A DNA stretch of 64,000 bases from Bacteroidales bacterium. GTDB lineage: Bacteria > Bacteroidota > Bacteroidia > Bacteroidales > UBA3824. Each line of letters opens with the position of its first letter. The first letter of the stretch is position 1. Both the position numbers and the translations under genes were made by a program. Below are positions 8,482 through 57,009 of the stretch, in pieces. The stretch is taken from NCBI GenBank assembly GCA_017417315.1, contig JAFPZK010000053.1, positions 31,798 through 95,797 on the forward strand, written 5' to 3'. The notes below the pieces were generated by a model, which saw nothing but the letters and a program-made list of their open reading frames with translations, was not told the origin of the DNA and searched no databases.

Positions 8482-9921
8482 TTAGTCCGAAAATAAGTCT
8501 TTAAGTGTTATAACATTTTGAAAAACCGAACTATATTGATTATTTTTTAATCCGTAGGTGGTAACAAGTACCGTATGAATCGTAAGACGGATAGAATTAA
8601 TCTTTTTGAAAACTTTTATCCGTCTTTCAATGTCCTCATAATCATTTTTGTCTGTCAAGTATTCATCGTCATAAAATTTCATTTCGCATATATTTATAAC
8701 CTTGTCTGCGCGGTCAATAATAAGGTCTATTTGAGCCTTTTCCGAAGCAGACGATGGCGAAATCCATGAATATAAGTTTGTTATAATTCCGGAAATACCC
8801 AAAGCCTTTTCTATTTGCGTTTGATGATTGAGGCATAATTGTTCAAACGCTAATCCTGCCCAAACACTATGTTTGTGTGTACCGTTTTGAAACTGCCAAA
8901 ACGACTTACCTTGCGGACTATTGTTTTTTAGAAATTTATAGTAAAAAAGTGTGAACGGGTCAGTAAGTTGATAAAGACTATTGCGTGTTTTGTTTCCGAA
9001 ACCGCGATAGCAACGGATAAAATCACAGTCTATAAGGTTTTGGAGAATTTCGCTGAAATGTCCGTTGTTTTCTAAACCTGAGGTTTTAAGAATTTCGTCG
9101 CGGGTAAGTCCTTTGTTTTTTGAGCTAAGGGCTTCAACGACTTTGATATAATTGGCGGAATTTTCAAATAGTGATGCGTATAGGGCATCAAATTCGCCGT
9201 CAAGACTACATTGCTGCTTGAAAAACATCTCGTCAATATTTTGGGCGAGACTTGCCCCTCGCCGCAAGTTTTTTAAGTAAAAAGGTATTCCGCCCATTAT
9301 CATATAACATTCGGCAATTTCTTTATCCTCCATTATGATACCACGGCTTTGAATATATTCCTTACATTCGGCAAGTGTGAACGGACGGATATATATTTTT
9401 TGCGTTACGCGGTTGTGAAGTCCGCCGTGGTTTTTAAGAATTTTGCGCGTTATCCATGATGTAGCCGAGCCACAGACAATCAGTACAATATCATTTTGTG
9501 TTACCGCCCAATCGTTCCAAAAGTGCTCTATGGCAGACACTAAATTGCTGTTAGTAGTGTCAATCCACGGTAATTCGTCTATAAAGATTATGCGTTTGCC
9601 GATAGTTTCAGTATTTTCGAGCAATGTGCGAAGTTTTTCAAACGCTTCATACCAAGTGCGCGGCTTCGTGTATCTTTGTTTGCCGCCATAGCGATTAAGA
9701 GATGCCGTAAAATTAGTAAGTTGCTCGGTTTTGCTTCTTTTTGCCAATCCAGTCAGTTTGAATGTAAAGTTGTCTCCGAAAAAAGAGTTTATAAGGAAAG
9801 TTTTTCCGACTCTTCGTCGTCCGTACACAACAACAAACTCGGCTTCATTGGATTCCATGATGCTTTTTAGGCGGTTGATTTCGTTTTTTCGTCCAACCAA
9901 AATATCCGTTTTCTCTTTCAT
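8482..9921 (-). CDS. AAA ATPase with C-terminal PD-(D/E)XK-like domain ('ATP-binding protein')
   Basis: GRRRVGKT, FIDELPW, CGSATSW, GGIPFYL; C-terminal QIDLIIDR...ICEMKF. Confidence 0.9.
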   Translation of the reverse strand: MKEKTDILVGRKNEINRLKSIMESNEAEFVVVYGRRRVGKTFLINSFFGDNFTFKLTGLAKRSKTEQLTNFTASLNRYGGKQRYTKPRTWYEAFEKLRTLLENTETIGKRIIFIDELPWIDTTNSNLVSAIEHFWNDWAVTQNDIVLIVCGSATSWITRKILKNHGGLHNRVTQKIYIRPFTLAECKEYIQSRGIIMEDKEIAECYMIMGGIPFYLKNLRRGASLAQNIDEMFFKQQCSLDGEFDALYASLFENSANYIKVVEALSSKNKGLTRDEILKTSGLENNGHFSEILQNLIDCDFIRCYRGFGNKTRNSLYQLTDPFTLFYYKFLKNNSPQGKSFWQFQNGTHKHSVWAGLAFEQLCLNHQTQIEKALGISGIITNLYSWISPSSASEKAQIDLIIDRADKVINICEMKFYDDEYLTDKNDYEDIERRIKVFKKINSIRLTIHTVLVTTYGLKNNQYSSVFQNVITLKDLFSD

Positions 9922-9971
9922 AGCGGTTAAGATTTAATTGGCAAAAATAATGTTTTTAACGATAAATTCCA

Positions 9972-10034
9972 AAAAAAATGCAAGAGTTCGGGCTATAAGT
10001 CGTTTTTTTTTGGAGTTATAGCCCTAACTCTTGT
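9972..10034. repeat. 63-bp hairpin repeat, copy B
   Basis: Direct repeat of 8413-8475 with 3 mismatches, upstream of the ATPase promoter. Confidence 0.92.
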
Positions 10035-10208
10035 TAATACCAATAAAAAAAACGCCGGCATAGAGAAAGGAATAATTGCCGGCGTTTCTTTCAATTTAAT
10101 TACTAATTAATTACTAAAACAATTTAACGTTAAGATCAAAAAAATTATACGGTTATTGAAAAATCTGTGCAAAGTAAGCAATTATTTTTCCCAATGTATA
10201 TTCTTTTT

Positions 10209-35765: not shown

Positions 35766-35951
35766 AATTCGTTGATATATTTTTTTGACGGGACAAAAAT
35801 AAAAACTATGCGAGGTAAAGTCAATACGAGGGAAACTGATTTTAAGGACAAAGGAATACGTAAAACACTAAAATATTTTCATTGCGTAAGTTGTAAAAAC
35901 AATCCAATGCCCTGAAAGTGAAGTCGCTCTGTGTGCAACAAGCTTTCGTGT

Positions 35952-35993
35952 AATTTTTCAGATGTCTGAAAAATGTCAGATGTCTGAAAAATT
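35952..35993. repeat. 42-bp tandem-palindrome repeat, intergenic copy
   Basis: AATTTTTCAGATGTCTGAAAAATGTCAGATGTCTGAAAAATT; 40/42 identical to 36749-36790. Confidence 0.9.
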
Positions 35994-36057
35994 CATTTCA
36001 AAACTTTACGCTGTTTTTTCGTGGGCGTAATTCTGAAAAATTGAAGTTTTGCTGTGT

Positions 36058-37101
36058 TTACTTCAATATGTCAGCAACTAATTTTCTAAGTTCGTCTTTG
36101 TCAGGCAAATAGAGTTCATATTTTGACACAAAGAGATTGGAGTCCATTCCGTATGTTGCGTATTCCACAAGCAATTCGTCGCGATAGTGGCTCATAATGA
36201 TTCCTATCGGCGGATTGTCGCCTTCCACATTTTCCTCTTTTGCGAAATAGCCCATATACATATTCATCTGTCCAATATCCTTGTGCGTTACAGCACCGCG
36301 TTTGAGGTCGATAAGCACAAAACATTTCAAAATCCTATGATAAAAAACTAAGTCAATATGATAATGTACATTGTTGATAGTCAGCGGATATTGACGCCTG
36401 ACAAAGGCAAAGCCCTTACCCAATTCAAGAAGGAAAGTCTGCATATTGTCTATCAGTTTTTGCTCCAACTCGCTTTCCTTGTATCGTTTTTTAGCATCTA
36501 TGCCAAGGAACTCCAATGTGTAAGTGTCCTTCACTACATCCTCCACTTTTTGAAGATTTTGACCTTGGTGCGCCAATTGCAACACGCCCTCTTTGTCTTT
36601 GCTCTGCGCCAAGCGCATAAACAATCCACTTTCTTTCTGTCTGTGAAGTTCGTTAACTGTCCAACTCTCGGCGATGCATTCTTTCTCGTAAAATTCACGC
36701 TCCAAATCGTTGTCAATGGTGATTAGTTCGCAGATGTGCGACCAAGTCAATTTTTCAGATGTCTGAAATATTTCAGATGTCTGAAAAATTGGGTACAGCA
36801 AATAAAACTTGCGCATATTGTTGAGATTCGGGTGGCTGTAACCACGACCAATCCTCGCCACAAGTATTTTGGCAAGGCTTGTAAGAAGTCTTGTGCCGTA
36901 TTTTGCCCGGGCATTACCATTTTGCTCAAACTCTACAATATGTCTGCCGACATTCCAATATGTACGCTTAATTGTCTGATTGATGCTAACCGCTAATTGC
37001 TTACGCTCGGATTCAATTTCAGCAACAATTGTATCTGCAAGTTGCATTAAGTCAGCGTCATATATTGGAATAAGAGTCGCTTCCGTTTTTTTCTTTCCCA
37101 T
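36058..37101 (-). CDS. YhcG/DUF1016 PD-(D/E)XK nuclease-domain protein
   Basis: YWNVGRHIVE, LTWSH, KDTYTLEFL, FLLELGKGFAF, IDLVFYHRILKCFVLIDLK, GQMNMY. Confidence 0.93.
   Translation of the reverse strand: MGKKKTEATLIPIYDADLMQLADTIVAEIESERKQLAVSINQTIKRTYWNVGRHIVEFEQNGNARAKYGTRLLTSLAKILVARIGRGYSHPNLNNMRKFYLLYPIFQTSEIFQTSEKLTWSHICELITIDNDLEREFYEKECIAESWTVNELHRQKESGLFMRLAQSKDKEGVLQLAHQGQNLQKVEDVVKDTYTLEFLGIDAKKRYKESELEQKLIDNMQTFLLELGKGFAFVRRQYPLTINNVHYHIDLVFYHRILKCFVLIDLKRGAVTHKDIGQMNMYMGYFAKEENVEGDNPPIGIIMSHYRDELLVEYATYGMDSNLFVSKYELYLPDKDELRKLVADILK
36749..36790. repeat. 42-bp tandem-palindrome repeat, in-gene copy (encodes IFQTSEIFQTSEK)
   Basis: AATTTTTCAGATGTCTGAAATATTTCAGATGTCTGAAAAATT. 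Confidence 0.9.
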
Positions 37102-37234
37102 TGTTATCAATGTTTTAAATTCCGCAAATTTACGGATTGTTTTTGAAATTTCAAGGGGGAAGGGAAGATTTTTTTGCAATGAAAAAAACGGCTGCGACCT
37201 ATGGGGGGCGCAGCCGAAAAAAGTATGTCGAAAG

Positions 37235-38883
37235 TTAAACGTCAAAGTAACTATCCATTGTATCCCGCACTTCGGCAATTAGACGTTTCTTTTCGTCTTT
37301 GAGAACGAATGCTTGTTTCATGTCGCCAAAACACGACCTTTTTGTAACAAAAACTTCCTGATATAACCAAGCAAATTGTTACCAAATATTCCGTCAGGCA
37401 ACACAATCGCCATTCTTCCACCGAATTTCAACAACTGATAGCAACGCTCAATGAACAAGATTTGCGGTGCTTCCTTGTCGGCAAGTTTCATTTTCTCCCA
37501 ATCATTAGTGCCTTTCTTGTTTTTCCATTTGTGGGCGAGGTCGAATTGTTTTAGTTTGTCTTCTCCCGTAACAGGAATTTTGGAACCAAAAGGCGGATTG
37601 GTCAACACTACGCTGAACTCGCCGAAATGGATTTTTTGACGTGTCCTTTCTCCCCAATTTTCGGGACGTTCCAAACTATCCTCGCAAAACACGCCGCCTT
37701 TGCCGTCGCCCATTATCGCCATATACGATTTAGCAATTTTTGAGAGAAAATAATCCTTATCTATGCCCCGGATACATTTGTTTGCGACATCGATTTTTTC
37801 CTCCAAAATGGCAGTATCAGACCAACCCATTTCACGGTATCGGGTTATAATCTTGTTCCAAATGTAACGAAGCGATTCTATGATAAAACCGCCGCTGCCA
37901 CACGCAGGGTCAATTACCATATCGTTGTCGTCAGGATCAAGTATTTCAACCATCATCTTCACAACATTGCGCGGTGTAAAGAATTGACCCTGACCGCCCT
38001 TTAATGCGTGGTCGATAAATGTTTCGAAAGCATCGGCAAGCACATCGCGCTCGGCATCAATGAGACAATAATTTTGCATTTCACCTACAATGTAGGCGAT
38101 GGAATTGTCGTCAAGATTGATTACATCTTCTTTGGTAAAAACTTCGTGATATTTTGCTTTTACATCCGAAAAAAGTTTCTCGATGCGGCCGCGCACATCG
38201 GCGTTGCTTTCGTTTAAGCCGACACGGAAACGGACGATTGATTCGGGCGCAGTGAAACGCTCGTCAAATATTTTGCAGAAAATCAGATTGATGAGTTGCT
38301 GTGCCAAAACTTCGTCGCGTGTCGCCCCAATAGCATTGGCAGCCAAATAGTTGCGTATCGCTTTGAATGTTGATTTCAGGTTGTGAGTTACAATCAGTTC
38401 CTTTCGTTTGATTGCTCCAATATCTTCCAACCTTTCGCCATATTTCGGAATATTTGGAATGTCTTTGAAAAGTACACGTCCGTCATCTGTATTCTGTTTC
38501 AACAGATAAAAACGCTCCTCACCATTGAACCACACTCCGAGATTGGCTTTTGATAATGTGAGATAGTTTTCAAGTTGGGTACGACCGTCTTTTCTGTTTT
38601 TCTTTTTGCACTCGACAATCAAAAAAACTGTGTCGTCCGTTTTTTCAGTGTCGCTAAAAACTGCAATATCAACAGGATACTCCTTTTTAGTATCACTTGG
38701 ACGCACCTTTACGTGAAACTGAGGGCGTGTTTGTATTTGTGTCTTCGGATAGCCATAGTCCTCCACCAAAATTTTGGAAAAGACCTGCGTGGCTTCCACT
38801 TCTTCGGGCGACGCTTTTACTTGCTGCCCCGAAATAAAGTCTATGATATAGCCATCCTTTGGCTGAGTTTGTTCTTCTGCCAT
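37235..38883 (-). pseudogene. HsdR_N-like + N6-adenine DNA methyltransferase fusion (Type IIG-like), internally deleted
   Basis: VDIAVF..VECK nuclease motif, GQFFTP, DPACGSGG, NPPF. Frame stops mid-MTase at 37318. A helical tail DMKQAFVLKDEKKRLIAEV...FDV* follows in another frame, then a terminator at ~37186-37222. Confidence 0.8.
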
Positions 38884-38944
38884 TGCACTATGCATTTTTA
38901 GGGCGATTGCTTATCTGTTTTCGGTTTGACGTGCAATTCTGACA

Positions 38945-39130
38945 GGGCATAAAAAAGTGGACTTAACATTATCCACAATCTGAGGCCCTGAGAATTGCCC
39001 GCCTTCACAGATAAGCCAAGCCCACGCAAGCGCGTAGGCATTTACTTGACTTATTCGTGCGAAGACATTTCTAAAATTTCTCAGGTTTCAGATTATATCA
39101 CCGAATAAATAGCAAACGCTAATGTTAATT
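38945..39130 (-). ncRNA. Putative structured 5' leader RNA upstream of the N6-MTase gene
   Basis: Nested stems with G-U pairs on the minus strand, central hairpin GCCUACGC/GCGUGGGC, 3' hairpin GUGGA..UCCAC followed by U6. Confidence 0.6.
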
Positions 39131-39267
39131 AATAATATGTTAAAATTTTATTTCGCCAACGGTTTAACGTGGCTTTTAAAGTCATTTTCTTACAATTTTG
39201 TTAAACGCCGTAAATATAACGGATTTCTTTTTAACCATAAAAATTTTATTGCACTTTTTTATAAAAA

Positions 39268-39318
39268 AAAGTACAGTAACATAATTATCAACAAGTTGAA
39301 TTTATGTTACTGTACTTT
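39268..39318. terminator. 17-bp-arm inverted repeat downstream of dapL
   Basis: AAAGTACAGTAACATAA ... TTATGTTACTGTACTTT. Confidence 0.6.
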
Positions 39319-39345
39319 GCGTATGTGAAACGATAAAATATCCCT

Positions 39346-40542
39346 TTATCCTATCTTTTCAATCCTCTCCATCGCCTCGATGCAATTCTCTCTCGAACCA
39401 AACGCCGTAATCCTGATATAGCCTTCTCCTGATGTGCCGAAACCTGCGCCGGGAGTGGTAACAACTTGGGCGGAGTGGAGAAGCCGGTCAAAAAATTTCC
39501 ATGAATCTTCGCCTTTGGGAGTTTTGAGCCAAATGTAGGGTGCGTTTTCACCGCCAAATGCCGTGAAACCCGATTTTTGAAGGCTGTCGCGGATTATCTT
39601 GGCGTTGGTGAGATAATAATTGATTACCTCCTTGGTCTGCCGCTGTCCTTCGGCGCTGAACACCGCCTCCGCACCGCGCTGCGAAATGTACGATGCACCG
39701 TTGAATTTTGAGCATTGACGGCGGTTCCAAATCGGATTCAAGGCAACGAGCGAACCGTCGGAAGATTTGATTTTCAACTCCTTGGGTATCACCGTGTAGC
39801 CGCAACGCACACCCGTGAATCCGGCAGTCTTTGAAAAACTGCGAAACTCTATCGCACACTCTTTTGCGCCGTTGATTTCGTAAATCGAATGTGGAATTTC
39901 AGGGTCGGTGATGAATGCCTCGTATGCCGAATCATACATTATCAACGTGTTGTGGCTCAGCGCGTAATCCACCCAACGCCTCAACCCTTCGCGAGTGATT
40001 ACTGCCCCCGTGGGATTGTTGGGGAAACAGAGGTACATCACGTCGAGATTTTCGGCGGGGATGTCGCCCGTGAAGCCGTTTTGCTCGGTGCAGGGAATGT
40101 AGCGGATTTGCCGTCCCGCCATACTGTTGGTGTCAACATAAACGGGATACACCGGGTCGGTAACGCCGATTACGTTGTTGGCGGAAAGAATGTCGCCGAT
40201 GTTGCCGAGGTCGCTCTTAGCACCGTCTGAGATGAAAACTTCATCGCTGTCGAGGTGGATGCCGCGCGGAGTGTAGTCGTGTGCTATAATCTTATCTATC
40301 AAGAAGTTGTAACCTTGCTCAGGACCGTAGCCGTGAAAAGTTTCTGCCTTGGCGCAGTCGTCAACGGCGCGGTGCATTGCCTCAATTACGGCAGGTACGA
40401 GGGGTTGGGTAACGTCGCCGATTCCGAGACGAATTATCTGAGCGTCAGGATTTTGCTCCTTGTATGCCGCCACACGTTTTGCAACCTCAGCAAAGAGGTA
40501 ACGGTGGTGGATTTTGGTGAAATTATCGTTGATGTATGCCAT
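39346..40542 (-). CDS. dapL: LL-diaminopimelate aminotransferase
   Basis: [41 protein letters not shown]. Confidence 0.96.
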
Positions 40543-40728
40543 TTTTTGTTATAATTTTATATGGCAAAATTACTCAGATAATTTCAATTGAGAATCTTGA
40601 AACGGTGATTTTACGTGAATTAGGTATTGTATGACGTGAGAATGATTAAAAAATGTTAATAATTACTTTTAAAGATAATTATTATTTCGACTATTTATTA
40701 TATTTGCACAACAAAAATAAAAAGAAAA

Positions 40729-40797
40729 ATGGCAAAGGCTACAATACAATCAGTAAAACAGACAGAAACTGCGGGATTGTTCACCATTGAAATATGA
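40729..40797 (+). pseudogene. 22-codon remnant of the upstream (probable toxin) gene of a TA pair
   Basis: MAKATIQSVKQTETAGLFTIEI* follows a TATATTTG promoter box (40699). Its stop overlaps the HTH gene start (ATGA). Confidence 0.5.
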
Positions 40798-41066
40798 AAC
40801 ATTCAAACGCCACAGAATTGCTCTTTAATCAGGTAATTGATGAAACGCCGCCTGAAATAAAACAGGAGGTGGAATGGTCATACAGCATTGCTGACAAAAT
40901 TTACGAAGCACTGCGTCGTAAAGGGTTGTCGCAAAAGGAGTTCGCACGCCTTGTCGGAACGTCCGAAGCCGCCGTTTCCAAGTGGATTGGCGGCGGTCAT
41001 AATTTCACGCTTTCGACATTGGCTAAGATTTCGATGGTGTTGGGCGTGGATATGATTAAAGTGTAG
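40794..41066 (+). CDS. XRE/HTH_3 transcriptional regulator (HigA-like antitoxin)
   Basis: GLSQKEFARLVGTSEAAVSKWIGGGHNFTLSTL. Confidence 0.88.
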   Translation: MKHSNATELLFNQVIDETPPEIKQEVEWSYSIADKIYEALRRKGLSQKEFARLVGTSEAAVSKWIGGGHNFTLSTLAKISMVLGVDMIKV

Positions 41067-41098
41067 TTCTTCTATCTGAATTTTCGTCAAAGATTTAA

Positions 41099-42184
41099 TC
41101 ACTTCCCCGACTTCTCCCGGTTGCACTTGCGGCAGAGCATTTGGCAGTTTTCCTTGACGGTGTGTCCGCCCTGACACCACGGCGTGATGTGGTCGGCTTC
41201 CATCTGTTCAATTTCGAAATGTTCGCCGCAAATTTTGCAGATACCGTTCTGATTTTCATAGACTTCGCGCTTGGTGTTGTCGTCGAAGGCGCGGATGCCG
41301 AGATGCTTTTCGTCGCCGTCGAGGACGTAGGGATAAATGCCGGATTTTTTCTGAACGTCGGAGTCTTTCATTAATTCTGACACTCGGGATTCAAGTTGCT
41401 GAACGTTAAGGTTTTGGTTGTGAAACTTATCGTAAAGCAAACCCCAATCCACGCCTTTCATTTCTTTGCGATATTTTGGGAAAATTGCTTTCACCCAAGA
41501 GATTACGCTTTGAAAATAATTCCAAAGTTCGATGGCATTGTTGTCGTGCTGATGCTTGCCCATATAAATCTCGATGCCAATGTTGCGGGCAATCCAACTG
41601 AGCGCAGTTTCGAGATAGTCCTGACGTATGGGCGAACCGTTGAGATACTTGCTCGCCAAGCCGTATGCCGCGCAATTGTTTTTGGAGAAATAACGCTTGG
41701 CGTCGCTCACCCAACTGCCTGAATATACGGCGTTTCGGAGTTCTTGTTCGGTGAGTTTTTCACCGGCAATGTTGATAGTGCGAAACCATTTGAGTTTTTC
41801 ACTATCGGAACCGCTGCAAATGTAAATTTGCAGTTCGTAATCCAGAATTTTGTCCGCCTCGTCTTGCTTCAAGTTGTAGAAATATTTGAAGAAAAACGCA
41901 AAATCACCGTTTACATACTGACAAATTGAAATTGTACGTTGCTGACCGTCAATGATTTCGTAAGTGCCATCGTCGCGGGTAGCCCAATACATCACGTTTA
42001 ACGGGAAACCGTTTGTAACAGTGTCGATAACAGCGTCGCGCTGTTTGTCATTGTAGACAAATTCGCGCTGATACGGCGGACGCACATCGAGTTTGCCGCC
42101 AAAAGCCTTTACACCACTTTCGGCGTTGTCTTCGTAACCGTTTGTCAGGTCACGAATTGTGATTTTGTGCAATTCAATTTCCAT
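41099..42184 (-). CDS. DUF262 (ParB-like/GmrS) + HNH endonuclease
   Basis: RPPYQREFVY, IDGQQR, INIAGEKL; C-terminal CKIC...EADHITPW..GG.T..NCQMLCRKCNR. Confidence 0.92.
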   Translation of the reverse strand: MEIELHKITIRDLTNGYEDNAESGVKAFGGKLDVRPPYQREFVYNDKQRDAVIDTVTNGFPLNVMYWATRDDGTYEIIDGQQRTISICQYVNGDFAFFFKYFYNLKQDEADKILDYELQIYICSGSDSEKLKWFRTINIAGEKLTEQELRNAVYSGSWVSDAKRYFSKNNCAAYGLASKYLNGSPIRQDYLETALSWIARNIGIEIYMGKHQHDNNAIELWNYFQSVISWVKAIFPKYRKEMKGVDWGLLYDKFHNQNLNVQQLESRVSELMKDSDVQKKSGIYPYVLDGDEKHLGIRAFDDNTKREVYENQNGICKICGEHFEIEQMEADHITPWCQGGHTVKENCQMLCRKCNREKSGK

Positions 42185-42197
42185 AAGTCGTTGTTAT

Positions 42198-43343
42198 TTA
42201 ATGGTTAAACGGAGTTGTGGGTTCGGCGGCAAGGGCAAGTTTGGATTGCTGTTTGCGGCGGATAAGGATGCGGGCGTAAATACTTTGATACAATTCACCT
42301 GTTTGTCTATCTTTGAACGCTGCCACCTTCTTATCCACTAACGGATTATGTTTTCGATACAATGTTCCTTTGGCATTGAAAGTATACTTTCCTGTTGGAT
42401 TACCTTCTTTATCCAAAATTTCCATTTCTCTATTATTAAGAAAATCACAACTGCCAACAATGCCGAGTGCCTCTATTTCAAATTGGTCTGGATTGTATTT
42501 ATCCAAAAACGTAATTGGAACACCAATAGTCTGATAATAATCAGATGGTATTTCATTTGTAATATCAACATTTATAGCATCATAGTTTTCGTACTTCGGA
42601 TATTCTTTTGCATTAAACATTTTGTAGAGTATTAAATCCTCGTGACGTTCTTTGTAATCAAGATTTGTAAACCATCTAACACCCTTGACACGAATGTACT
42701 TGTTGCCATTTTCGTCTTGACGACATCCTGCCGCATTCAGTGGATAATCAGTAGGAACACCAAACTCCCTATCGCCACTATGAATACTTGCCCCAAGCCA
42801 AAGTTTATTATTCTTTATCAATTGAAATATTTCCTTATACGAAATTGCATTTACATTTCCTATTATGATAAACTTTTTGTTATATTCAATTAATTGCGCC
42901 ACATACTCGCGAAACAGAGAAAACGGCGGATTAGTTACTACTATGTCGGCTTGTTTCAAAAGTTCAATACATTCGGGGCTACGGAAATCACCGTCCCCTT
43001 TTAGATAATTAATTCCAATTTCCTCTGGGTCTGGTATTCTGTTGCCATTTTTGTCTCCATTATATTCGAGCCAAATAGCGCGTTCTGAATCACTTTTTGA
43101 AAACAGATCACGACTTTGGTTTTTGTAGCAAGTGGTTATAAGTTTCTTCAAGCCCAAGTGCTCAAAACTATAACTAAAATAATGAAAGAAGTTGCTGATA
43201 CGTGGGTCATCGCAATTACAAAGAACGGTCTTTCCTTTAAAGTGGTCTTTGTAATGTTTTAGTTCCAACTCAATATCAACAAGTTGAGTATAAAACTCAT
43301 CTTTTTTGGCTTTTTTTGCGTTCTTCAAATCGTTGTTTGCCAT
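42198..43343 (-). CDS. EcoRI-family adenine-specific DNA methyltransferase
   Basis: KKDEFYT, CNCDDP, GDGDFRS, VVTNPPFSLFREY, GVPITFLDKYNPDQF. Confidence 0.93.
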   Translation of the reverse strand: MANNDLKNAKKAKKDEFYTQLVDIELELKHYKDHFKGKTVLCNCDDPRISNFFHYFSYSFEHLGLKKLITTCYKNQSRDLFSKSDSERAIWLEYNGDKNGNRIPDPEEIGINYLKGDGDFRSPECIELLKQADIVVTNPPFSLFREYVAQLIEYNKKFIIIGNVNAISYKEIFQLIKNNKLWLGASIHSGDREFGVPTDYPLNAAGCRQDENGNKYIRVKGVRWFTNLDYKERHEDLILYKMFNAKEYPKYENYDAINVDITNEIPSDYYQTIGVPITFLDKYNPDQFEIEALGIVGSCDFLNNREMEILDKEGNPTGKYTFNAKGTLYRKHNPLVDKKVAAFKDRQTGELYQSIYARILIRRKQQSKLALAAEPTTPFNH

Positions 43344-43384
43344 TTTGATTGATAGTTTATCGCATTCGCTATCAATCACTTATC

Positions 43385-43606
43385 GGCATAAAATAAGGCG
43401 TGAGCCTTTCTATCACATTCACGAGGAGCGTCGCGAGAACCCCGTTGTACCCATAGAATTTGCCCACACCTTACGCGGTGCGAGCATTAACAAACTGGGT
43501 ACAACGGAAGAGTCTAAGACACTCTGCGAGTGAATTTTATTACTTCCGATTCAAAATCAAGAGTTTGCGACGCTTTTGTTTTGAATGTGAATAATAGTCA
43601 ATGCTT
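43385..43606 (-). ncRNA. Putative structured 5' leader RNA upstream of the EcoRI-family MTase gene
   Basis: Nested stems UCACAUUCA/UGAAUGUGA, AGCGUCGC/GCGACGCU, CCGUUGUACCCA/UGGGUACAACGG and hairpin GCUCGCACC/GGUGUGGGC; TAAATTTG promoter box at ~43689-43696. Confidence 0.6.
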
Positions 43607-43761
43607 TATATGTTAATAAATTCTGTCTGTTTTTATCTCATAAATAATTATGATTGGTTAAACAATTTGCTTTAATTAAGCAACGTTGCAAATTTAGCAA
43701 AACTTTTCGATACTTTGTTTATGTTCTCAAAAAAAAAAATTAAAACAGAGGTTGAAAGACA

Positions 43762-43804
43762 AAGGAAATGAATCGGTGACAAATTGTCACCAAATCATTT
43801 CCTT
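43762..43804. terminator. Inverted repeat downstream of dapF
   Basis: AAGGAAATGA..GGTGACAA-A-TTGTCACC..TCATTTCCTT. Confidence 0.55.
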
Positions 43805-43830
43805 CGAGAAATAACATCGTTGAATCACTT

Positions 43831-50730: not shown

Positions 50731-50817
50731 GGGAGAGATTTATATTTAATGAAGAAAAATTTTTCCTTTTACGCAAATTATGCTAATTTTGCAAGTGTTG
50801 TAAACACGCAAAATATT

Positions 50818-53784
50818 ATGCTCGAAAAAGACATTGAAAATAACCTAATTAACATCCTTTCGTCTAATCTGAAATTCACTTACAGAGAGGACATAAAGGA
50901 TCGCAAGGCATTGGAGGAGAATTTCAGACAGAAGTTCAACAGACATAACTATGTCAATCTTACTGACTTGGAATTTGCCCGACTTTTGGACGAAATTGTT
51001 ACTTCCGACGTATTTGAAGCCTCAAAAAAACTGAGGACTATCAATACTTTTATGCGTCAGGACGAAACGCCTCTGCAATATTCGCTTATCAACACCAAAG
51101 ACGTGTGCAAAAACGATTTTGAGTTTGTAACACAACTCAAAATCAACACGCGCAACAGTTTTCAGCGTTACGACGTGGTGTTGCTTATCAACGGATTGCC
51201 CGTTATGCAGATAGAACTCAAAACCGTAGACGTAAGTCCGCGCCGAGCAATGCAGCAGATTATCGACTACAAAAACGACTCAGGCAACGGCTATCAAAAT
51301 ACACTGTTGTGTTTCATTCAGATTTTTGCAGTTAGCAATTTTACCAACACATATTATTTTGCCAACAACAATAACAAATACTTCAACTTCAATGCCGAAG
51401 AACAGTATTTGCCTGTATATCAATGGGCTAATCGTCAAAACGAAAGAGTAAGCCGCCTTGACAATTTTGCCGAAAGTTTCCTCAAAAAAGAAAAACTCGG
51501 CGTAATGATAAGCCGTTATATGGTTTTGTTGGAGACCGAAAGGCGTATTCTTATAATGCGTCCATACCAAATCTATGCCGTAAAGGCGATAATGAAATGT
51601 ATCGAAGAAAACCGTGGCAACGGATACATCTGGCACACCACAGGCAGCGGAAAGACCCTCACCTCTTTCAAGGCAGCCACTTTGATGAAAGACAATCCTA
51701 ACATCGACAAGTGCCTTTTTGTAGTAGACCGCAAAGACTTAGACAAGCAGACTCGCGACGAGTTCAACCGTTTTCAAGAAAAATGTGTGGAGGAAAACAC
51801 CAATACGGGTGAACTTGTAAGACGTATGCTCAGCACCAACTATGCCGATAAAATAATAGTTTGCACAATCCAAAAACTCGGCATCGCCCTTGATTCGCAT
51901 TATCGGGAGCAACTCAAAGCGATTAAAAATCAACGTCTTGTCTTTATTTTCGATGAGTGCCACCGTTCTCAGTTTGGCGAAAACAACAAGGCGATAAAAG
52001 AGTTTTTCCCTAATGCAAGGCTTTTTGGTTTTACAGGAACTCCCATTTTTGATAAAAACGCAAAAACGATTACCGCCACAGGCGAGGAGGCTCGTTATAT
52101 GACTACGCAAGACGTTTTTCAAAACCTCCTTCACTCTTACACCATTACCGATGCCATCAGAGACAAAAACGTGCTGCGATTCCACGTGGATTATTTTGTA
52201 CCCGCCGACACAGACTTCGACGGCAACGGCACAATCAAAAAACAGGCTGTGGTGCGTTCTGTAATACAAAAGCACGATGCTGCCACCAGTCAAAGAAAGT
52301 TTAACGCCATTTTTGCAACTTCATCAATCAACGACGCCATAGAATATTACAATGTTTTTGAGCAGGAACAGCAAAAAAATGTAGATGAAAACCCTGATTA
52401 CAAGCCGCTTAATATCACTTGTCTATTCTCTCCGCCTGCATACGACAACAAAGACATTCAGCAGATTCAGGAAGATTTGCCAAACGAATATCGCGACAAT
52501 CATCAAGAACCCGAAAAAAAGAAATTGGCTCTCGAAAAGATTATCGACGATTACAATCGGCGTTATTCCACCAATCACTCTATCAACGAGTTTGATTCGT
52601 ATTATCAGGACGTTCAGACAAGAATAAAGGCGCAGAAATATCCTGAAAAAGATTATCCGCATCAAAACAAAACCGACATCACTATTGTTGTGGATATGCT
52701 TTTGACGGGTTTCGACTCCAAATACCTCAACACCTTGTATGTGGACAAAAAACTGAAATACCACGGACTTGTTCAGGCTTTTTCGCGTACCAACAGAATA
52801 CTCAACGATTCAAAACCTTACGGCAACATCTTGGATTTCAGAAACCAACAACAAGAAACCGACGAGGCCATCCAACTATTTTCGGAAGGCGATAAGGAGA
52901 CAATACGCGAAGTGTGGCTCGTAGAACCTGCCAAAAATATTTTGCAGAAATACGAAGAAAAGGTGCAAGACCTCAAAAAACTTATGTCGTGGAACGAGGA
53001 AATCAACACCGACGATATAGCCAACCTCAACACCGACGGCGAAAAAGTTGCATTTATACAGGCTTTCAAAGAGGTTCAACGCCTAAAAACGCAACTCAGC
53101 CAATACACCGACTTAACGGAAGATGACAAGGAAAAAATTGAAAGTCTCATTGACGACAACGACCTTTGCCTACTACGCGGCGCATATCTCGACACCGCCC
53201 GCGACCTCAAACGCAGCAGCGACACCGCACACAAAGAAGGCAAACAGTCTGAATTAGACGATATTGATTTTGAGTTTATCTTGTTTGCCTCCGTTGTGGT
53301 AGACTACGATTATATAATGCAACTGATTTCGCAGTACACGGGCTATCACACCAAAGAAAAACTCACTAAGGATCAGTTGATTGCACGTGTACGCGCCGCC
53401 GCCAACCTTTTCGACGAACGAGACGACATCGAGGAGTACATCAACACGCTCGAAGTTGGCGATGGCATCAACGGCAAAACCGTACAGGAAATCAAAGACG
53501 GTTACATCGCATTCAAAGAGCGTAAAAACAACGCCGCCGTAGCCCAAATTGCCGAAACACACGGTTTGGCGATAGAAGCGTTAAAAACATTCATCAAACA
53601 AATCCTCGACCGAATGATTTTTGACTCTGACAAACTCGACGACCTTTTAGCACCGCTCAACCTCGGTTGGCGCGAAAAAGCCAAAAAAGAAAACCAACTT
53701 ATGGCAGACCTCGCCCCACTACTAAAAACCTTGGCAAACGGCAAAGAAATTTCAGGACTATCGGCGTATGAAAATATAAAATAA
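50818..53784 (+). CDS. hsdR: Type I restriction endonuclease subunit R
   Basis: DVVLLINGLPVMQIELK, WHTTGSGKT, DECHRSQ, GFTGTP, LTGFD, QAFSRTNR. Confidence 0.96.
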   Translation: MLEKDIENNLINILSSNLKFTYREDIKDRKALEENFRQKFNRHNYVNLTDLEFARLLDEIVTSDVFEASKKLRTINTFMRQDETPLQYSLINTKDVCKNDFEFVTQLKINTRNSFQRYDVVLLINGLPVMQIELKTVDVSPRRAMQQIIDYKNDSGNGYQNTLLCFIQIFAVSNFTNTYYFANNNNKYFNFNAEEQYLPVYQWANRQNERVSRLDNFAESFLKKEKLGVMISRYMVLLETERRILIMRPYQIYAVKAIMKCIEENRGNGYIWHTTGSGKTLTSFKAATLMKDNPNIDKCLFVVDRKDLDKQTRDEFNRFQEKCVEENTNTGELVRRMLSTNYADKIIVCTIQKLGIALDSHYREQLKAIKNQRLVFIFDECHRSQFGENNKAIKEFFPNARLFGFTGTPIFDKNAKTITATGEEARYMTTQDVFQNLLHSYTITDAIRDKNVLRFHVDYFVPADTDFDGNGTIKKQAVVRSVIQKHDAATSQRKFNAIFATSSINDAIEYYNVFEQEQQKNVDENPDYKPLNITCLFSPPAYDNKDIQQIQEDLPNEYRDNHQEPEKKKLALEKIIDDYNRRYSTNHSINEFDSYYQDVQTRIKAQKYPEKDYPHQNKTDITIVVDMLLTGFDSKYLNTLYVDKKLKYHGLVQAFSRTNRILNDSKPYGNILDFRNQQQETDEAIQLFSEGDKETIREVWLVEPAKNILQKYEEKVQDLKKLMSWNEEINTDDIANLNTDGEKVAFIQAFKEVQRLKTQLSQYTDLTEDDKEKIESLIDDNDLCLLRGAYLDTARDLKRSSDTAHKEGKQSELDDIDFEFILFASVVVDYDYIMQLISQYTGYHTKEKLTKDQLIARVRAAANLFDERDDIEEYINTLEVGDGINGKTVQEIKDGYIAFKERKNNAAVAQIAETHGLAIEALKTFIKQILDRMIFDSDKLDDLLAPLNLGWREKAKKENQLMADLAPLLKTLANGKEISGLSAYENIK

Positions 53785-53834
53785 ATCATTATCTTTGCGC
53801 ATACTTTTGTGTTACACTAAAAGAGCATAGCACT

Positions 53835-55712
53835 ATGAAAGTTAATACCAAACAGGCAGTTAAATTGTTCTTTCAAAATCCTTCCTTGGAGCAGGTTTTC
53901 AAGGAAGCGATTGCCAATTCTCTCGACGCTAATGCAACGAAAATTAATGTGAACATTCAAATTGATTCCTTCGAAAAACAGGAAACGTTGCAAGTGGAGA
54001 TAACAGACAACGGTGACGGCTTTACTGATATTCATTACGACAAGTTTTGTGAATTACTGAAAGTTGATGAGGAAACACACAAAGGCGTAGGTCGTTTGGT
54101 ATATCTCAGTTATTTTAACAAGATAGAAGTTTCGAGTTATTTCGATGGCAAGCACAGAACTTTTACTTTCAATGACGAATTTGATAAGGAAAAAACTGAT
54201 ATGGTTTTGACTAACAGTAATGAAACCAAACAAGAAACTACGCTTACATTCAAAGATTGCTCAATGCAGAGATTGAGCAGTTATACTGTTATAACACCCG
54301 ACAATCTCCATAAGCAGATATTACAGGAGTTTTATCCAAGGTTTTATATGCTAAAAAATGCAGGCAAAGACTTCAAAATTGCTTTTCGAATTAATGTCCC
54401 TCATAAAAACAAGAAACATTCTGTTGGCTCTTATGAAAGAACTATCACAAAATCAGACATTCCTGATATGCAAAATGTAACGATAGACAGTAGCAATATC
54501 AGAATGTTTGATAACTCTTTCATCGATTATGCGATAGAAAAGACAGATTCTCAATTAGAAACTTTCCTTATGACCGCCCTTTGCGTTGATGACAGGACAC
54601 AAATATTAGACGACATCATCGCATTGGAAAATCTGCCGCCGTTTGGTTACAGAATAGTGTTCATTTTACATTCTACATTGTTCAACGGCAAAGTAGATGC
54701 AGCACGGCAAGTGCTTACCATAAAAGAAGTTGAATTAAGGGAAATAAAACTATTGTTCAGGCAAAAGGTTTCCGAAATTGTTGAACAGGAAATCCCTACA
54801 ATCAAAGAACAGAACTTACGCACAAGAGAATCATTAGGCAAAACATATCCGCACCTTCTCGGCTATTTTGACAATAACGAAGTTGGAATTATTGAACGTT
54901 CCAAATCCATAGAAGAGGCGCAAAGACGCTTTTTGCGCGATCAAAAGGATATTTTGGAGGCTCAGTCTTTGGACGACGACAAATACAACAAGGCTTTGGA
55001 CGTATCGTCAAGGACACTTGCCCAATACATTTTGTATAGGGAAAAAATCATTTCAAAAGTAGAGCAATTGACAGACAAGAACTCGGAAGCCGACCTTCAT
55101 AATATCATTTTGCCACAACGCTCGGTATTGCACGAGGGTGCATTCGACAGTATGTACAGCAACAACCTTTGGTTGTTGGACAACAAGTATATGACATACA
55201 CCACAGCAATGAGCGAACGCACTATGAAAGAAGTGCTTGACGAAATTACACAATCGTCCACAGAAAAAAACAACGACCGCCCCGACATCGTAGTTATGTT
55301 TTCAAACGACCCTTCCAATACAGAGAATAGGTCGGTGGATGTGGTAATTATCGAACTAAAAAAACGCGGTATAAAGTTGGCAAAAGCAGAAGAGGCAATC
55401 AGCCAACTAAAACAACGTGCCATAAAGTTGTTGAAATACTATCCGAACAAGATTCAGAGAATGTGGTTTTACGCCATCGTGGAATTTAACGACGATTTCA
55501 AACTGTCGTTAATTAACGACGAATACACACCCTTGTTCTCAAAAGATAGTTTGTATTACAAAGAAGTTTCGCTGCAACTAACACTCGATGACCCGACAAA
55601 ATATTTAGTTGGAACGTATGTGTTGTCTATTGATGCATTCATCAAAGACGCAAAGGCCAACAACGAAATCTTTTTAACCATACTTAAAAACGGCTTCAAA
55701 GATGCAAGATAA
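53835..55712 (+). CDS. GHKL (HATPase_c) ATPase fused to a C-terminal PD-(D/E)XK-like nuclease
   Basis: EAIANSLDA, DNGDGF, KGVGRL; C-terminal RPDIV...IIELKK. Own TATCTTTG box at 53790. Stop overlaps the hsdS start. Confidence 0.82.
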   Translation: MKVNTKQAVKLFFQNPSLEQVFKEAIANSLDANATKINVNIQIDSFEKQETLQVEITDNGDGFTDIHYDKFCELLKVDEETHKGVGRLVYLSYFNKIEVSSYFDGKHRTFTFNDEFDKEKTDMVLTNSNETKQETTLTFKDCSMQRLSSYTVITPDNLHKQILQEFYPRFYMLKNAGKDFKIAFRINVPHKNKKHSVGSYERTITKSDIPDMQNVTIDSSNIRMFDNSFIDYAIEKTDSQLETFLMTALCVDDRTQILDDIIALENLPPFGYRIVFILHSTLFNGKVDAARQVLTIKEVELREIKLLFRQKVSEIVEQEIPTIKEQNLRTRESLGKTYPHLLGYFDNNEVGIIERSKSIEEAQRRFLRDQKDILEAQSLDDDKYNKALDVSSRTLAQYILYREKIISKVEQLTDKNSEADLHNIILPQRSVLHEGAFDSMYSNNLWLLDNKYMTYTTAMSERTMKEVLDEITQSSTEKNNDRPDIVVMFSNDPSNTENRSVDVVIIELKKRGIKLAKAEEAISQLKQRAIKLLKYYPNKIQRMWFYAIVEFNDDFKLSLINDEYTPLFSKDSLYYKEVSLQLTLDDPTKYLVGTYVLSIDAFIKDAKANNEIFLTILKNGFKDAR

Positions 55713-57009
55713 TAAACAATATACACCCGAATTGCGTTTCCCAGAATTTCACGACGATTGGCAGGTATATACGATGGAGACTATATTCGTAATGAAAAAT
55801 GGATATACGCCATCCAAATCTAATCCTAAATTTTGGGAAAATGGAACGATTCCGTGGTTTAGAATGGAAGATATTAGACAGAATGGAACTATTTTGTCAG
55901 ATTCGATACAACATATAACGCCCGATGCAGTCAAAAATAGTGGTTTATTTCCTGCGTATTCAATTATTTTGGCAACGACAGCGACTATTGGAGAACACGC
56001 ATTAATAATTGTTGATTCGCTTGCGAATCAACAATTTACGTTTTTAACAAAACGTAAATCGTTCGATAATTTAATTGATATGATGTATTTTTATCATTAT
56101 ATGTTTATTATTGACGAATGGTGCAAATCAAATACAAATGCAGGTGGATTGTTATCTGTTAATATGCCCGCATTAAAAAAATTGCAAATACCAATTTCCC
56201 CCATCCTCCCCGAACAGCGCAAAATAGCCTTATGTCTGTCATCGTTAGACGATTTGATAAAATCCGTTGGCGACAAAATCGAATTGTTGAAACAACATAA
56301 AAAAGGATTGATGCAGAAATTGTTTCCGAAAACACACGGTACGACATACGGACGCGGTAACGGACACGGTAGAGACGCAAAATTTTGCGTCTCTACAAAC
56401 CCAACCATTGTACCCGAATTGCGGTTTCCTGAATTTTCAGGGGATTGGCAGGTGAAAACGTTAGGGGATATTGCGGAAATAAATCCTAAATCACTTGAAC
56501 CTATTCCTACGGAATTTTATTATATTGATTTAGAAAGTGTATGTTCAGGCAGATTACAAAAACGACAAATTGTACAGTTGCTTAATGCACCAAGTAGAGC
56601 GCAAAGACAGTTCCATAGGGATGATATTCTTTTTCAGACAGTTAGGCCTTATCAAAAAAACAATCTTTATGTAGATTTCAATTGTTCTAATTATATTGCT
56701 TCTACGGGTTATGCTGTTATACGTTGCACAAAGGAAATATCTGATTCTAAATTTATTTACTTTGTTCTTCATAAAGATGATTTTGTAAAAAGTGTTTTGG
56801 ATAAATGTACAGGAACAAGTTATCCAGCGATAAATCCAAGCGTGTTGGGTTCCTTGTCCGTTTGTTTCCCCACCCTCGCCGAACAGCGCAAAATAGCGGC
56901 GTGTTTATCGTCCATCGATACGGCAATAGAAGAAACAGAAAAGAAACTGCAAATGTTGCAGCAGCACAAAAAAGGATTGATGCAGCGGATGTTTGTGCGG
57001 CGGGTGTAG
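55702..57009 (+). CDS. hsdS: Type I R-M specificity subunit with an in-frame REP in the central linker
   Basis: Two PELRFPEF-TRD-EQRKIA..KKGLMQ modules; linker contains GRDAKFCVST; stop TAG lies inside the REP at 57006. Confidence 0.95.
   Translation: MQDNKQYTPELRFPEFHDDWQVYTMETIFVMKNGYTPSKSNPKFWENGTIPWFRMEDIRQNGTILSDSIQHITPDAVKNSGLFPAYSIILATTATIGEHALIIVDSLANQQFTFLTKRKSFDNLIDMMYFYHYMFIIDEWCKSNTNAGGLLSVNMPALKKLQIPISPILPEQRKIALCLSSLDDLIKSVGDKIELLKQHKKGLMQKLFPKTHGTTYGRGNGHGRDAKFCVSTNPTIVPELRFPEFSGDWQVKTLGDIAEINPKSLEPIPTEFYYIDLESVCSGRLQKRQIVQLLNAPSRAQRQFHRDDILFQTVRPYQKNNLYVDFNCSNYIASTGYAVIRCTKEISDSKFIYFVLHKDDFVKSVLDKCTGTSYPAINPSVLGSLSVCFPTLAEQRKIAACLSSIDTAIEETEKKLQMLQQHKKGLMQRMFVRRV

Follow-up and report, generated by a model that had tools for sequence, protein, structure and literature searches.

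The window analysed here is a 64,000-nucleotide (nt) stretch of a Bacteroidales genome (contig JAFPZK010000053.1, positions 31,798 to 95,797), which contains a run of minus-strand core genes (gltB, gltD, dapF, aminotransferase, purC, purF and pyrG) together with two small restriction-modification (R-M) islets. Each islet carries its own promoter-like box and a structured leader, termed element A and element B. An earlier note on this DNA had described the two elements as divergent copies of one leader-RNA architecture placed upstream of unrelated DNA methyltransferase genes. Judged by covariance models and compensatory changes, A and B belong to a large, uncatalogued family of ~180-base rod-shaped leader RNAs spread across Bacteroidota. 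The features of the two islets, with positions counted within the window, are as follows.

35766-39345, minus strand: islet A, consisting of leader A, an N6 DNA methyltransferase (37318-38895) and a YhcG/PDDEXK protein (36058-37278), assigned by Pfam and PADLOC.
39125-39218, minus strand: upstream leader of A, conserved in the genus alignment and in the other copies of the genome.
39211-39218, minus strand: -7-box-like TATATTTA within this upstream leader.
39155-39173, minus strand: 5′ hairpin GCCACG..CGUUGGC within the upstream leader, where the TAACATAT motif is also found.
39129-39185, minus strand: possible 18-codon upstream open reading frame (ORF), a speculative reading.
38945-39124, minus strand: core of element A, predicted rod-shaped leader RNA (matches to covariance models R1 and R2, fold z -6.2, family covariation), laid out as 5′ tail AGCGUUUGCU, helices P1-P4, cap hairpin, 3′ hairpin, U-tract and AUGCCC.
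39020-39039, minus strand: cap hairpin of A, GCCUACGC-GCUU-GCGUGGGC, whose 3′ arm may alternatively pair with the tail AAGUCCAC.
38951-38976, minus strand: terminator-like hairpin of A, GUGGAU/GUCCAC followed by U6, the pairs of which covary in the family (helices 7-10).
38896-38950, minus strand: post-terminator leader of A; in minimum-free-energy folds GCCCUGUCAGAAUUGC pairs with GGGCAAUUCUCAGGGC of the rod, and CAGAUAAGC with the next bases complements the 5′ tail.
40551-43830, minus strand: islet B, consisting of leader B, an EcoRI-family methyltransferase, a GmrSD_N/HNH protein resembling type II restriction endonucleases (41099-42184) and a 90-aa ORF, assigned by Pfam and PADLOC.
43667-43696, minus strand: promoter-like -7 box of B, TAAATTTG (43689-43696), followed by a 5′ hairpin, read from the sequence.
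43386-43609, minus strand: core of element B, predicted divergent member with an extra branched apical insert (R2 match, fold z -7.0, B-type alignment).
43462-43485, minus strand: cap hairpin of B, GCUCGCACC-GCGUAA-GGUGUGGGC, in which AAGGUGUGGGC may pair with the tail GCUCACGCCUU.
43388-43408, minus strand: terminator-like hairpin of B, AAGGC/GCCUU followed by AUUUUAU (fold and terminator scan).
43344-43387, minus strand: post-terminator leader of B, predicted by folding and conserved up to ATGGCA in the B-type alignment.
43341-43343, minus strand: ATG, the likely start codon behind B.

All sequence motifs described in the earlier note were located at the places it gave, on the minus strand of both elements. 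The 5′ motif reads AGCGTTTGCTATTTATTC in A (39120-39103) and AGCATTGACTATTATTC in B, the cap hairpins are formed by GCCTACGC/GCGTGGGC in A (39039-39020) and GCTCGCACC/GGTGTGGGC in B (43485-43462), and the 3′ ends read AAGTCCAC-T6-ATGCC and AGGCTCACGCCTT-ATTTTATGCC, respectively; each element finishes with a short 3′ hairpin and then TTTTATGCC. Minimum-free-energy folding within the limits first proposed returned the long nested stem as a long rod plus the 3′ hairpin. The folding energy of A was -72.4 kcal/mol against -46.8 ± 4.1 kcal/mol for dinucleotide shuffles (z -6.2), and that of B was -82.8 against -53.7 ± 4.2 kcal/mol (z -7.0), with none of the 200 shuffles made for each element reaching the native value. 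Folded as DNA, A gave z -5.1 for the sense strand and z -3.1 for the opposite strand. The conserved units are longer than the limits first proposed, including the promoter-like -7 box and 5′ hairpin upstream and ~60 nt of leader 3′ of the U-tract. The box of B fits the TAnnTTTG motif, which we take to be the promoter motif of Bacteroidota.

Compensatory changes, which the earlier note had proposed to look for, were found in the A-type and family alignments as well as in the B-type alignment. Among 48 distinct copies, 95.9% of the cells in the paired columns were paired and 26 of 37 pairs showed compensatory changes; the covariation score was 0.487 compared with 0.183 for shuffles (0/500 as high), and fell to 0.03-0.07 when the partners were slid by 1-3 columns. 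Independently of any alignment, the P2 strands paired at -7.9 kcal/mol with their own partners and at -2.5 kcal/mol with partners swapped between copies, and the corresponding values for P3 were -13.0 and -5.3 kcal/mol. A plain MAFFT alignment of 18 B-type sequences, which was not fitted to a model, contained 44 predicted pairs, 14 of them compensatory. Sequence motifs in the unpaired regions and internal loops are strongly conserved in the family. Because 177 of 1649 paired cells (~11%) are G-U or U-G, which would be A-C mismatches on the other strand, the structure is assigned to the sense strand, as had been proposed. Covariation, model matches and orientation together bear out the view of A and B as two divergent copies of one sense-strand RNA architecture.

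To define the family, two covariance models were used: R1, a model of the 180-nt core with A in its seed, and R2, built from copies of other genomes. Membership was taken as a full-length model match with 5′ tail, P2b, P4, cap and tail in order, which both A and B display. A matched over its full length with 179.4 bits (R1) and 142.8 bits (R2). B matched R2 over its full length at the coordinates of the earlier note with a marginal score of 28.0 bits (E 0.004, roughly calibrated), and R2 also hit every one of the 18 full-length B-type loci where expected, with 17-30 bits. On these two grounds B is accepted as a divergent member, departing from the A-type mainly by its branched apical insert.

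When 100 relatives were surveyed by BLAST, 18 of the 24 genomes of the genus had A-like copies and 17 had B-like ones, several per genome. In the A-type genus alignment, conservation runs from a TAnnTTTG-like box and a 5′ hairpin whose sequence varies, across the rod, to the start codon ~60 nt past the U-tract. The covariance-model search suggested earlier thus confirmed the family well beyond the window: in an even sample of 151 genomes from the order, R1 detected full-length copies in 37 (36 of 148 genera), with up to 14 matches in one 2.0-Mb genome and many copies close to contig ends. In a sample of 151 genomes spanning the phylum, R2 detected members in 23, some of them from other orders of the class and five from other classes. 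The window's own genome holds 17 R2 matches at E up to 0.05, B being additional. A pattern scan of named species genomes returned at least 120 stretches; the labels among the pattern matches listed, which cover isolates and metagenome-assembled genomes, include Prevotella, Alistipes, Paludibacteraceae, Paludibacter, Dysgonomonas, Parabacteroides, Rikenellaceae, Prolixibacteraceae, Lentimicrobiaceae and Sunxiuqinia indica. All 80 pattern-scan loci fetched carry a full-length copy (83 matches, two copies in 3/80 loci). Blastn gave no match to A in plasmid and phage records, and a search of 2.9 million viral contigs for the family pattern was also negative.

Comparison with Rfam 15, another check suggested by the earlier note, gave no match at gathering scores in the whole window and only noise around A and B (E 0.25-10, all far under gathering scores), so that no Rfam 15 family accounts for the elements even at E up to 10. 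Likewise, no description of the rod leader was found in the available portions of the literature searched, including PMC8040213 and PMC5737381, whose supplementary lists of candidates were not covered, and a prior unnamed listing is possible.

Several further observations concern individual copies. A small number of pattern matches come from contigs with the labels Chlorobiota, Chloroherpeton, Candidatus Falkowbacteria or Rickettsiales metagenome-assembled genomes, which may be mis-binned Bacteroidota contigs or reflect real spread beyond the phylum. Two copies were noted at L125 (1058-1244, 1468-1654), L120 (429-594, 2347-2517), L072 (1411-1577, 3262-3439) and L058 (766-935 on the minus strand, 1501-1674 on the plus strand), and such pairs stand in tandem 224 nt apart, with one gene between them, or back to back before divergent genes. 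The window's own genome (G000) contains a sub-type with ATTGGGCTTTACGCTCTTATTCTC at the 5′ side and AAACGGCTACACGCTTTTTTT at the 3′ side (C16:10301, C77:58371, C67:23712, C4:14473 and C67:156219; loci L225-L231), which mostly precedes 68-79-aa proteins sharing an N-terminal motif, none of the three scanned having a Pfam match; a 75-aa protein behind the different-looking copy L232 (C67:163910) scores HTH_26. Two extra own-genome matches of a two-motif regular expression, C13 and C17, were dismissed by eye as chance hits in protein-coding-looking sequence lacking the motifs, and weak model matches within the window at 9918-10041 (E 0.45), 35937-36016 (E 0.24) and 5373-5488 (E 0.34) were regarded as noise.

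The position of the copies relative to genes was then compared in 129 copies with context, a set that includes loci fetched twice and comprises 116 distinct element sequences. The next downstream ORF of at least 100 aa is co-directional in 116 of the 129 copies, at a median gap of 58 nt; only two copies face an opposite ORF, and 11 have no ORF within 600 nt. Upstream ORFs are mixed, with 67 on the same strand, 34 on the opposite strand and none in 28 cases. Of 109 copies, 75 have a TAnnTTTG box in the 220 nt upstream, with 50-69 nt the commonest distance, and most gaps between element and gene have neither space nor motif for a second promoter. Because co-directional ORFs follow so regularly and so closely, the rod element fits a cis-acting leader rather than a free small RNA gene, a miniature inverted-repeat transposable element (MITE) or a DNA site.

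The upstream region was also inspected for short ORFs. ATG triplets peak 31-40 nt upstream of AGCGTT (42 of 115 copies, compared with about 5-23 in other bins), a peak driven by ATGACATAA, which reads Met-Thr-stop and lies ~35 nt upstream in 23 of 115 copies; the ORFs differ in length and frame, and many copies lack one. We regard this recurrent mini-ORF as a speculative lead and not as a finding. In the genus, some copies have upstream ORFs of 11-18 codons that end at or near the TAACATAT motif. Pairing between an upstream ACATA motif and the post-U-tract ATG(C/T)C, checked by eye, was not consistent. At two loci of two species, L205 and L206 (G002:C356 and G006:C298), ~850 bp comprising a 108-aa ORF, promoter and leader are common at 97% identity, unrelated genes follow, and homology ends ~39 nt after the element, one locus having a 437-bp insert upstream; this pair points to a possible exchange of cargo at the 3′ edge of the leader.

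The earlier note had proposed that the elements control R-M and defence genes. The gene labels on which this was based hold in the window. The protein behind A combines HSDR_N_2 and N6_Mtase domains, with MTase_II as its best PADLOC model (8e-90) and weaker type IIG matches, and its partner matches PDC-S02 (8e-128); behind B, an EcoRI-family methylase (MTase_II, 4.9e-118) is accompanied by a GmrSD_N (DUF262)/HNH protein matching the type II restriction endonuclease model (REase_II, 8.8e-141). In a sample of 37 loci of the genus, 13 copies precede EcoRI-type methylases (clustering by BLAST with the window's protein) and seven precede members of an HSDR_N_2/N6_Mtase/HsdM cluster, five of which were Pfam-scanned; the rest are one N6_N4 methylase, one Eco57I/N6 methylase, three ResIII or DEAD helicases, one DarT-domain protein, one dynamin-like GTPase, an LRAT protein, two Acyl_transf_3 proteins, one helix-turn-helix (HTH) protein and six proteins without Pfam match. 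In the window's own genome, D12, N6/Eco57I, type III, N6_N4 and C5 methylases and an Eleos-like dynamin stand behind copies, along with several 68-79-aa proteins (one HTH_26), lipoprotein-like ORFs and unknowns.

Methyltransferases and defence genes thus make up most of the cargo in the own genome and the genus, in agreement with that proposal, but elsewhere the family is not dedicated to R-M genes. Among 29 proteins of the order sample the commonest were two D12 methylases and two Por_Secre_tail proteins, accompanied by BspA leucine-rich-repeat, Fib_succ_major, CsgG and VWA proteins. The 71 proteins of the pattern sample included N6_Mtase (5), ResIII (5), Eco57I (5), Por_Secre_tail (5), Fib_succ_major (4) and Laminin_G_3 (3). 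Copies in other orders and classes precede TonB-dependent receptors, FG-GAP/Ig proteins and signal-peptide ORFs, and in one genus a single copy per genome stands before a TonB-dependent receptor in 7/7 genomes. Since the downstream genes outside the genus differ in this way, with cargo of the type IX secretion system, Fib_succ_major, TonB receptors, FG-GAP/Ig proteins and lipoprotein-like ORFs also headed by the leader across order and phylum, an R-M-specific family is not upheld. Nothing points to S-adenosylmethionine or S-adenosylhomocysteine, the ligands suggested for probing, and the methyltransferase link is, across the genomes sampled, a lineage-specific use within the genus and own genome. 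The role during establishment in a new host put forward in the earlier note is speculative and not supported, A having no match in plasmid or phage records and the family pattern none in the viral contigs.

Both elements end in the sequence form of an intrinsic terminator, a G+C-containing hairpin directly before a U-tract, and the U-tract is conserved in the family. A simple terminator scanner marks both hairpins, at 38976-38957 followed by T6 in A and at 43408-43395 followed by ATTTTAT in B. The earlier note had seen that the 3′ segment can alternatively pair with the 3′ arm of the cap hairpin, suggesting a pseudoknot or switch. By direct reading, this pairing comprises 8 bp in A and 11 bp in B, and it proved to be general in the family, whose leaders carry a terminator-like end and a competing pairing. 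Over 112 copies, the duplex of cap 3′ arm and tail has a mean of -12.2 kcal/mol, as stable as that of the two cap arms (-12.3 kcal/mol), with controls of -2.2 and -5.0 kcal/mol, so that mutually exclusive pairings of the terminator/antiterminator kind are present. The tail adjoining the U-tract mostly reads CCCACGC, with AAGUCCAC in A and GCUCACGCCUU in B, and the cap 3′ arm GCGUGGGC is nearly invariant. In the same copies the 5′ tail AGCGUU pairs with the junction and the first bases of the cap 5′ arm at -7.0 kcal/mol. It also complements ACGCU of the tail, so that the full rod can close (AGCGU:ACGCU) beside the U-tract.

Further pairings extend past the U-tract. In the genus, the post-U-tract segments GCCCGNN and ATGCCC pair with the internal loop and 3′ strand of the rod; 93% of these cells are paired, 5 of 11 pairs show compensatory changes and 0/500 shuffles were as good. 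The far-downstream CCGAAAACAGAUAAGCCAAACGC complements the 5′ tail, and full-length leaders fold into a second arrangement. Extension of the P2 5′ strand pairing to the far-downstream leader was seen only in L009/L011 and L013 among 14 rows inspected. In B, GUGAUUGAUAG complements both the 5′ motif CUAUUAUUCAC (direct reading) and the start-proximal CUAUCAAUC (hairpin 43347-43377). By direct reading and folding, CUAUUAUUCAC, GUGAAUGUGAUAG, GUGAUUGAUAG and CUAUCAAUC, the last lying just before the AUG, allow two arrangements: a closed rod with a start-proximal hairpin, or the 5′ tail paired with the downstream segment and the start region freed. Read-through RNA appears to matter, because selection is seen on pairings that are present only in read-through transcripts, which shows, as far as comparison of sequences can, that selection acts on such transcripts.

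Given a cap 3′ arm:tail pairing of equal strength and a post-terminator leader covarying with the rod, we favour, with moderate confidence, the reading that A and B are cis-acting 5′ leaders of one family working as a terminator/antiterminator-type switch. The unit would be ordered as a Bacteroidota-type promoter, a short 5′ region, the ~180-nt rod (helices P1 to P4, conserved internal loops and cap hairpin), a short conserved tail, the U-tract, ~60 nt of leader and the gene, and the switch would set the number of polymerases that reach the gene. Three competing pairings would follow the order of the classical attenuator segments 1:2, 2:3 and 3:4: the 5′ tail (AGCGUU) with the junction and first bases of the cap 5′ arm; the cap 5′ arm with its own 3′ arm (GCGUGGGC); and the cap 3′ arm instead with the tail abutting the U-tract. 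In read-through transcripts the post-terminator leader would re-pair with the 3′ half of the rod and the 5′ tail to give a second fold, which in B would also involve the hairpin just before the start codon. The sequence comparisons show the structure with its strand, conservation and position, and that the competing complementarities exist. We infer that the U-tract terminates transcription, that one of the folds represents the ON state, and that a trans-acting factor or a ribosome sets the choice between them. In the own genome and genus the leader would travel with small R-M or defence islets placed between core genes, supplying promoter and leader, and elsewhere in the phylum the same leader would head genes for outer-membrane and secreted proteins.

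Several observations weigh against this reading. A hairpin stands beside the U-tract in both folds (P0 of the full rod or the local hairpin in one, cap 3′ arm:tail in the other), as would suit a constitutive terminator, and forbidding the tail pairing costs 0-7 kcal/mol. The cap 3′ arm:tail and 5′-tail pairings rest mostly on conserved sequence, cognate and swapped partners giving -12.17 and -11.95 kcal/mol. The terminator scanner found no excess of sites in the region (9 versus 8.7 in shuffles) and by itself lends weak support. The alignments A4 and A6 were fitted to the model, as was the alignment of 48 copies, which favours the structure of the model. Finally, B fails the whole-genome R2 search at E 0.05, with E-values that are roughly calibrated.

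A stand-alone small RNA gene, in which promoter, rod and U-tract make up a ~200-270-nt trans-acting or protein-binding RNA and the gene behind it is a mere neighbour or is reached by leaky read-through, would explain the own promoter-like box, the hairpin and U-tract that end every fold tried, and the strong conservation of motifs in unpaired regions. A rod with a large internal loop also recalls 6S-type RNAs. However, there is no match to the Rfam families 6S, Bacteroidales-1 or Flavo-1 even at E up to 10, and 116 of 129 copies are co-directional with an ORF at a median of 58 nt, only two being opposite. Most gaps also offer a second promoter neither room nor a motif. The conserved post-U-tract sequence that covaries with the rod would likewise have no role if the RNA stopped at the U-tract. 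We therefore hold a free RNA gene to be rather unlikely.

The evidence for competing helices also bears on a constitutive element acting at the RNA level without any switch, such as an mRNA-stabilising 5′ structure, an RNase III site or a terminator insulating islets within core operons. The rod is indeed a long, near-continuous double-stranded RNA, the islets are placed between co-directional core genes, and until the downstream leader has been transcribed the full rod is the thermodynamically dominant fold. Yet several mutually exclusive complementarities are conserved family-wide and the post-terminator pairing covaries, the highly conserved internal-loop sequences would be superfluous in a simple protective hairpin, and the upstream core genes end in terminator-like hairpins of their own. 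A purely constitutive role is accordingly judged improbable.

The number of copies, up to 14 in a 2.0-Mb genome and 17 in the own genome, their frequency near contig ends and their imperfect palindrome shape would suit a selfish transcribed repeat of MITE, ERIC or REP type spreading through intergenic regions. This origin is nonetheless very improbable. The 14 copies of one genome are 55-83% identical (median 66%), with copy-specific stems and conserved loops, which does not resemble a recent MITE burst, and what they have in common extends past the palindrome to the promoter region and the post-terminator leader. The strict orientation towards the downstream ORF (116/129), the lack of terminal repeats or target duplications seen at islet edges, and the lack of matches in plasmid and phage records or viral contigs point the same way. 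Identity with MITE, ERIC or REP elements was thus rejected, as the copies are neither near-identical nor free of a fixed relation to genes.

It is scarcely credible that the elements are single-stranded DNA sites, either attC-like recombination sites or single-stranded promoters of incoming DNA marking mobile defence cassettes, since a strand-specific hairpin with variable stems before exchangeable cargo, a pair of loci (L009 and L011) with the leader but not the gene in common and homology ending ~39 nt after the element, and the location of both window copies at the edges of inserted islets are outweighed by ~11% G-U among paired cells, which suits RNA better than DNA, by an orientation tied to the downstream gene with a promoter-like box upstream, by copies before ordinary chromosomal genes (the single-copy TonB-dependent receptor leaders), by the absence of arrays beyond a few tandem pairs (two copies in only 3/80 loci), and by the absence of an integrase noticed beside the two islets, for which no integrase search was made. 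Integron attC identity was rejected as well: single copies head the window islets, and no integrase family appeared among the ORFs scanned, which were not the subject of a dedicated search.

A more tentative extension of the switch reading, which we consider possible but doubtful, is that the rod leader constitutes a phylum-wide class of riboregulators, reaching at least 17 copies in a genome, that answers one global signal and governs a regulon of surface, secreted and defence genes, and that in this rumen and gut lineage it serves as a portable expression cassette for incoming R-M and defence islets. Candidates for such a signal are a metabolite, a second messenger, a protein, or translation status sensed via the upstream mini-ORF.

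Compared with known systems, the rod leader resembles classical attenuators and riboswitch platforms (trp leader 1:2, 2:3, 3:4) in its leader position, in its end of hairpin and U-tract, and in having a U-tract-adjacent strand that competes for the partner of an upstream hairpin. It differs in that its sensing domain would be a ~180-nt rod with conserved loops of its own, that it has no family-wide leader peptide (the ATGACATAA mini-ORF occurs in only 23/115 copies), and that it is not linked to a known ligand or protein, its termination switch being predicted from sequence. Its many copies per genome before diverse accessory, surface and secreted-protein genes are reminiscent of the distribution of cyclic di-GMP-I (GEMM-I) riboswitches, but its architecture is different, no Rfam match was obtained and no ligand is indicated. 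Like ERIC/IRU and REP palindromes, the copies are dispersed intergenic hairpins of the transcribed strand; unlike these, they are old and divergent, have copy-specific covarying stems, and keep a set orientation and spacing relative to a gene, accompanied by a promoter and by conserved leader sequence downstream. As a dedicated control element heading R-M operons it parallels C-protein circuits, islet B also containing a small divergent ORF that is HTH-like by eye; C-proteins, however, are DNA-binding transcription factors, whereas the rod leader is an RNA structure that is not confined to R-M genes. Like the FopS/GibS RNAs, the family is a multicopy Bacteroidota RNA linked to outer-membrane protein genes. 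Identity with them was rejected, because the FopS RNAs of Bacteroides are ~65-70 nt long, consist of a single-stranded seed and a terminator and act in trans on susC mRNAs (PMC11697453), differing in size and architecture from the ~180-nt rod-shaped element in cis.

With a length of ~180 nt, presence in about a quarter of the sampled Bacteroidales genera and also in other classes, many copies per genome and absence from Rfam, the rod leader would be among the larger uncharacterised classes of cis-regulatory RNA in gut and rumen bacteria. In Bacteroidota, RNA-level gene control is poorly charted. It would mark a ready-made regulon, of defence islets here and of outer-membrane and secreted proteins elsewhere. 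It would offer a direct handle on how newly acquired R-M systems come to be expressed in hosts with non-standard promoters and without Shine-Dalgarno pairing, and on what signal brings surface and defence genes under joint control. With the alignments and models, further members of the family can be searched for, and clear mutants follow from the competing helices.

The surroundings of the two elements were compared with those in relatives. In five relatives of the genus, only ~28-249 nt separate dapF from the aminotransferase gene behind it, and in a sixth, L214 (G014:C18), dapF is directly followed by purC without the aminotransferase between them. From these junctions, B heads what is, by comparison with relatives, an inserted islet of ~3.3 kb, and A very probably heads another of ~3.6 kb, located between the aminotransferase gene and purC. 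Neither terminal repeats nor target duplications were seen at the islet edges, and no integrase was noticed among the window ORFs scanned beside islets A and B, among which no dedicated integrase search was made. The aminotransferase gene is immediately followed by a long perfect hairpin, GTACAGTAACATAA..TTATGTTACTGTAC with T8 behind it (39262-39305, minus strand), which the simple scanner misses on account of its loop size and which is probably the terminator of that gene. The 90-aa ORF of islet B lies on the opposite strand at the 3′ edge of the islet (40794-41066, plus strand); its translation is HTH-like by eye (XRE/Cro-type), making it a possible C-protein-like controller. Further along the window, a type I R-M locus at 50749-57009 (plus strand) encodes HsdR (1011 aa) and HsdS (435 aa) with a 625-aa HATPase_c_3 protein between them, and together with islets A and B it forms a small defence neighbourhood among the core genes.

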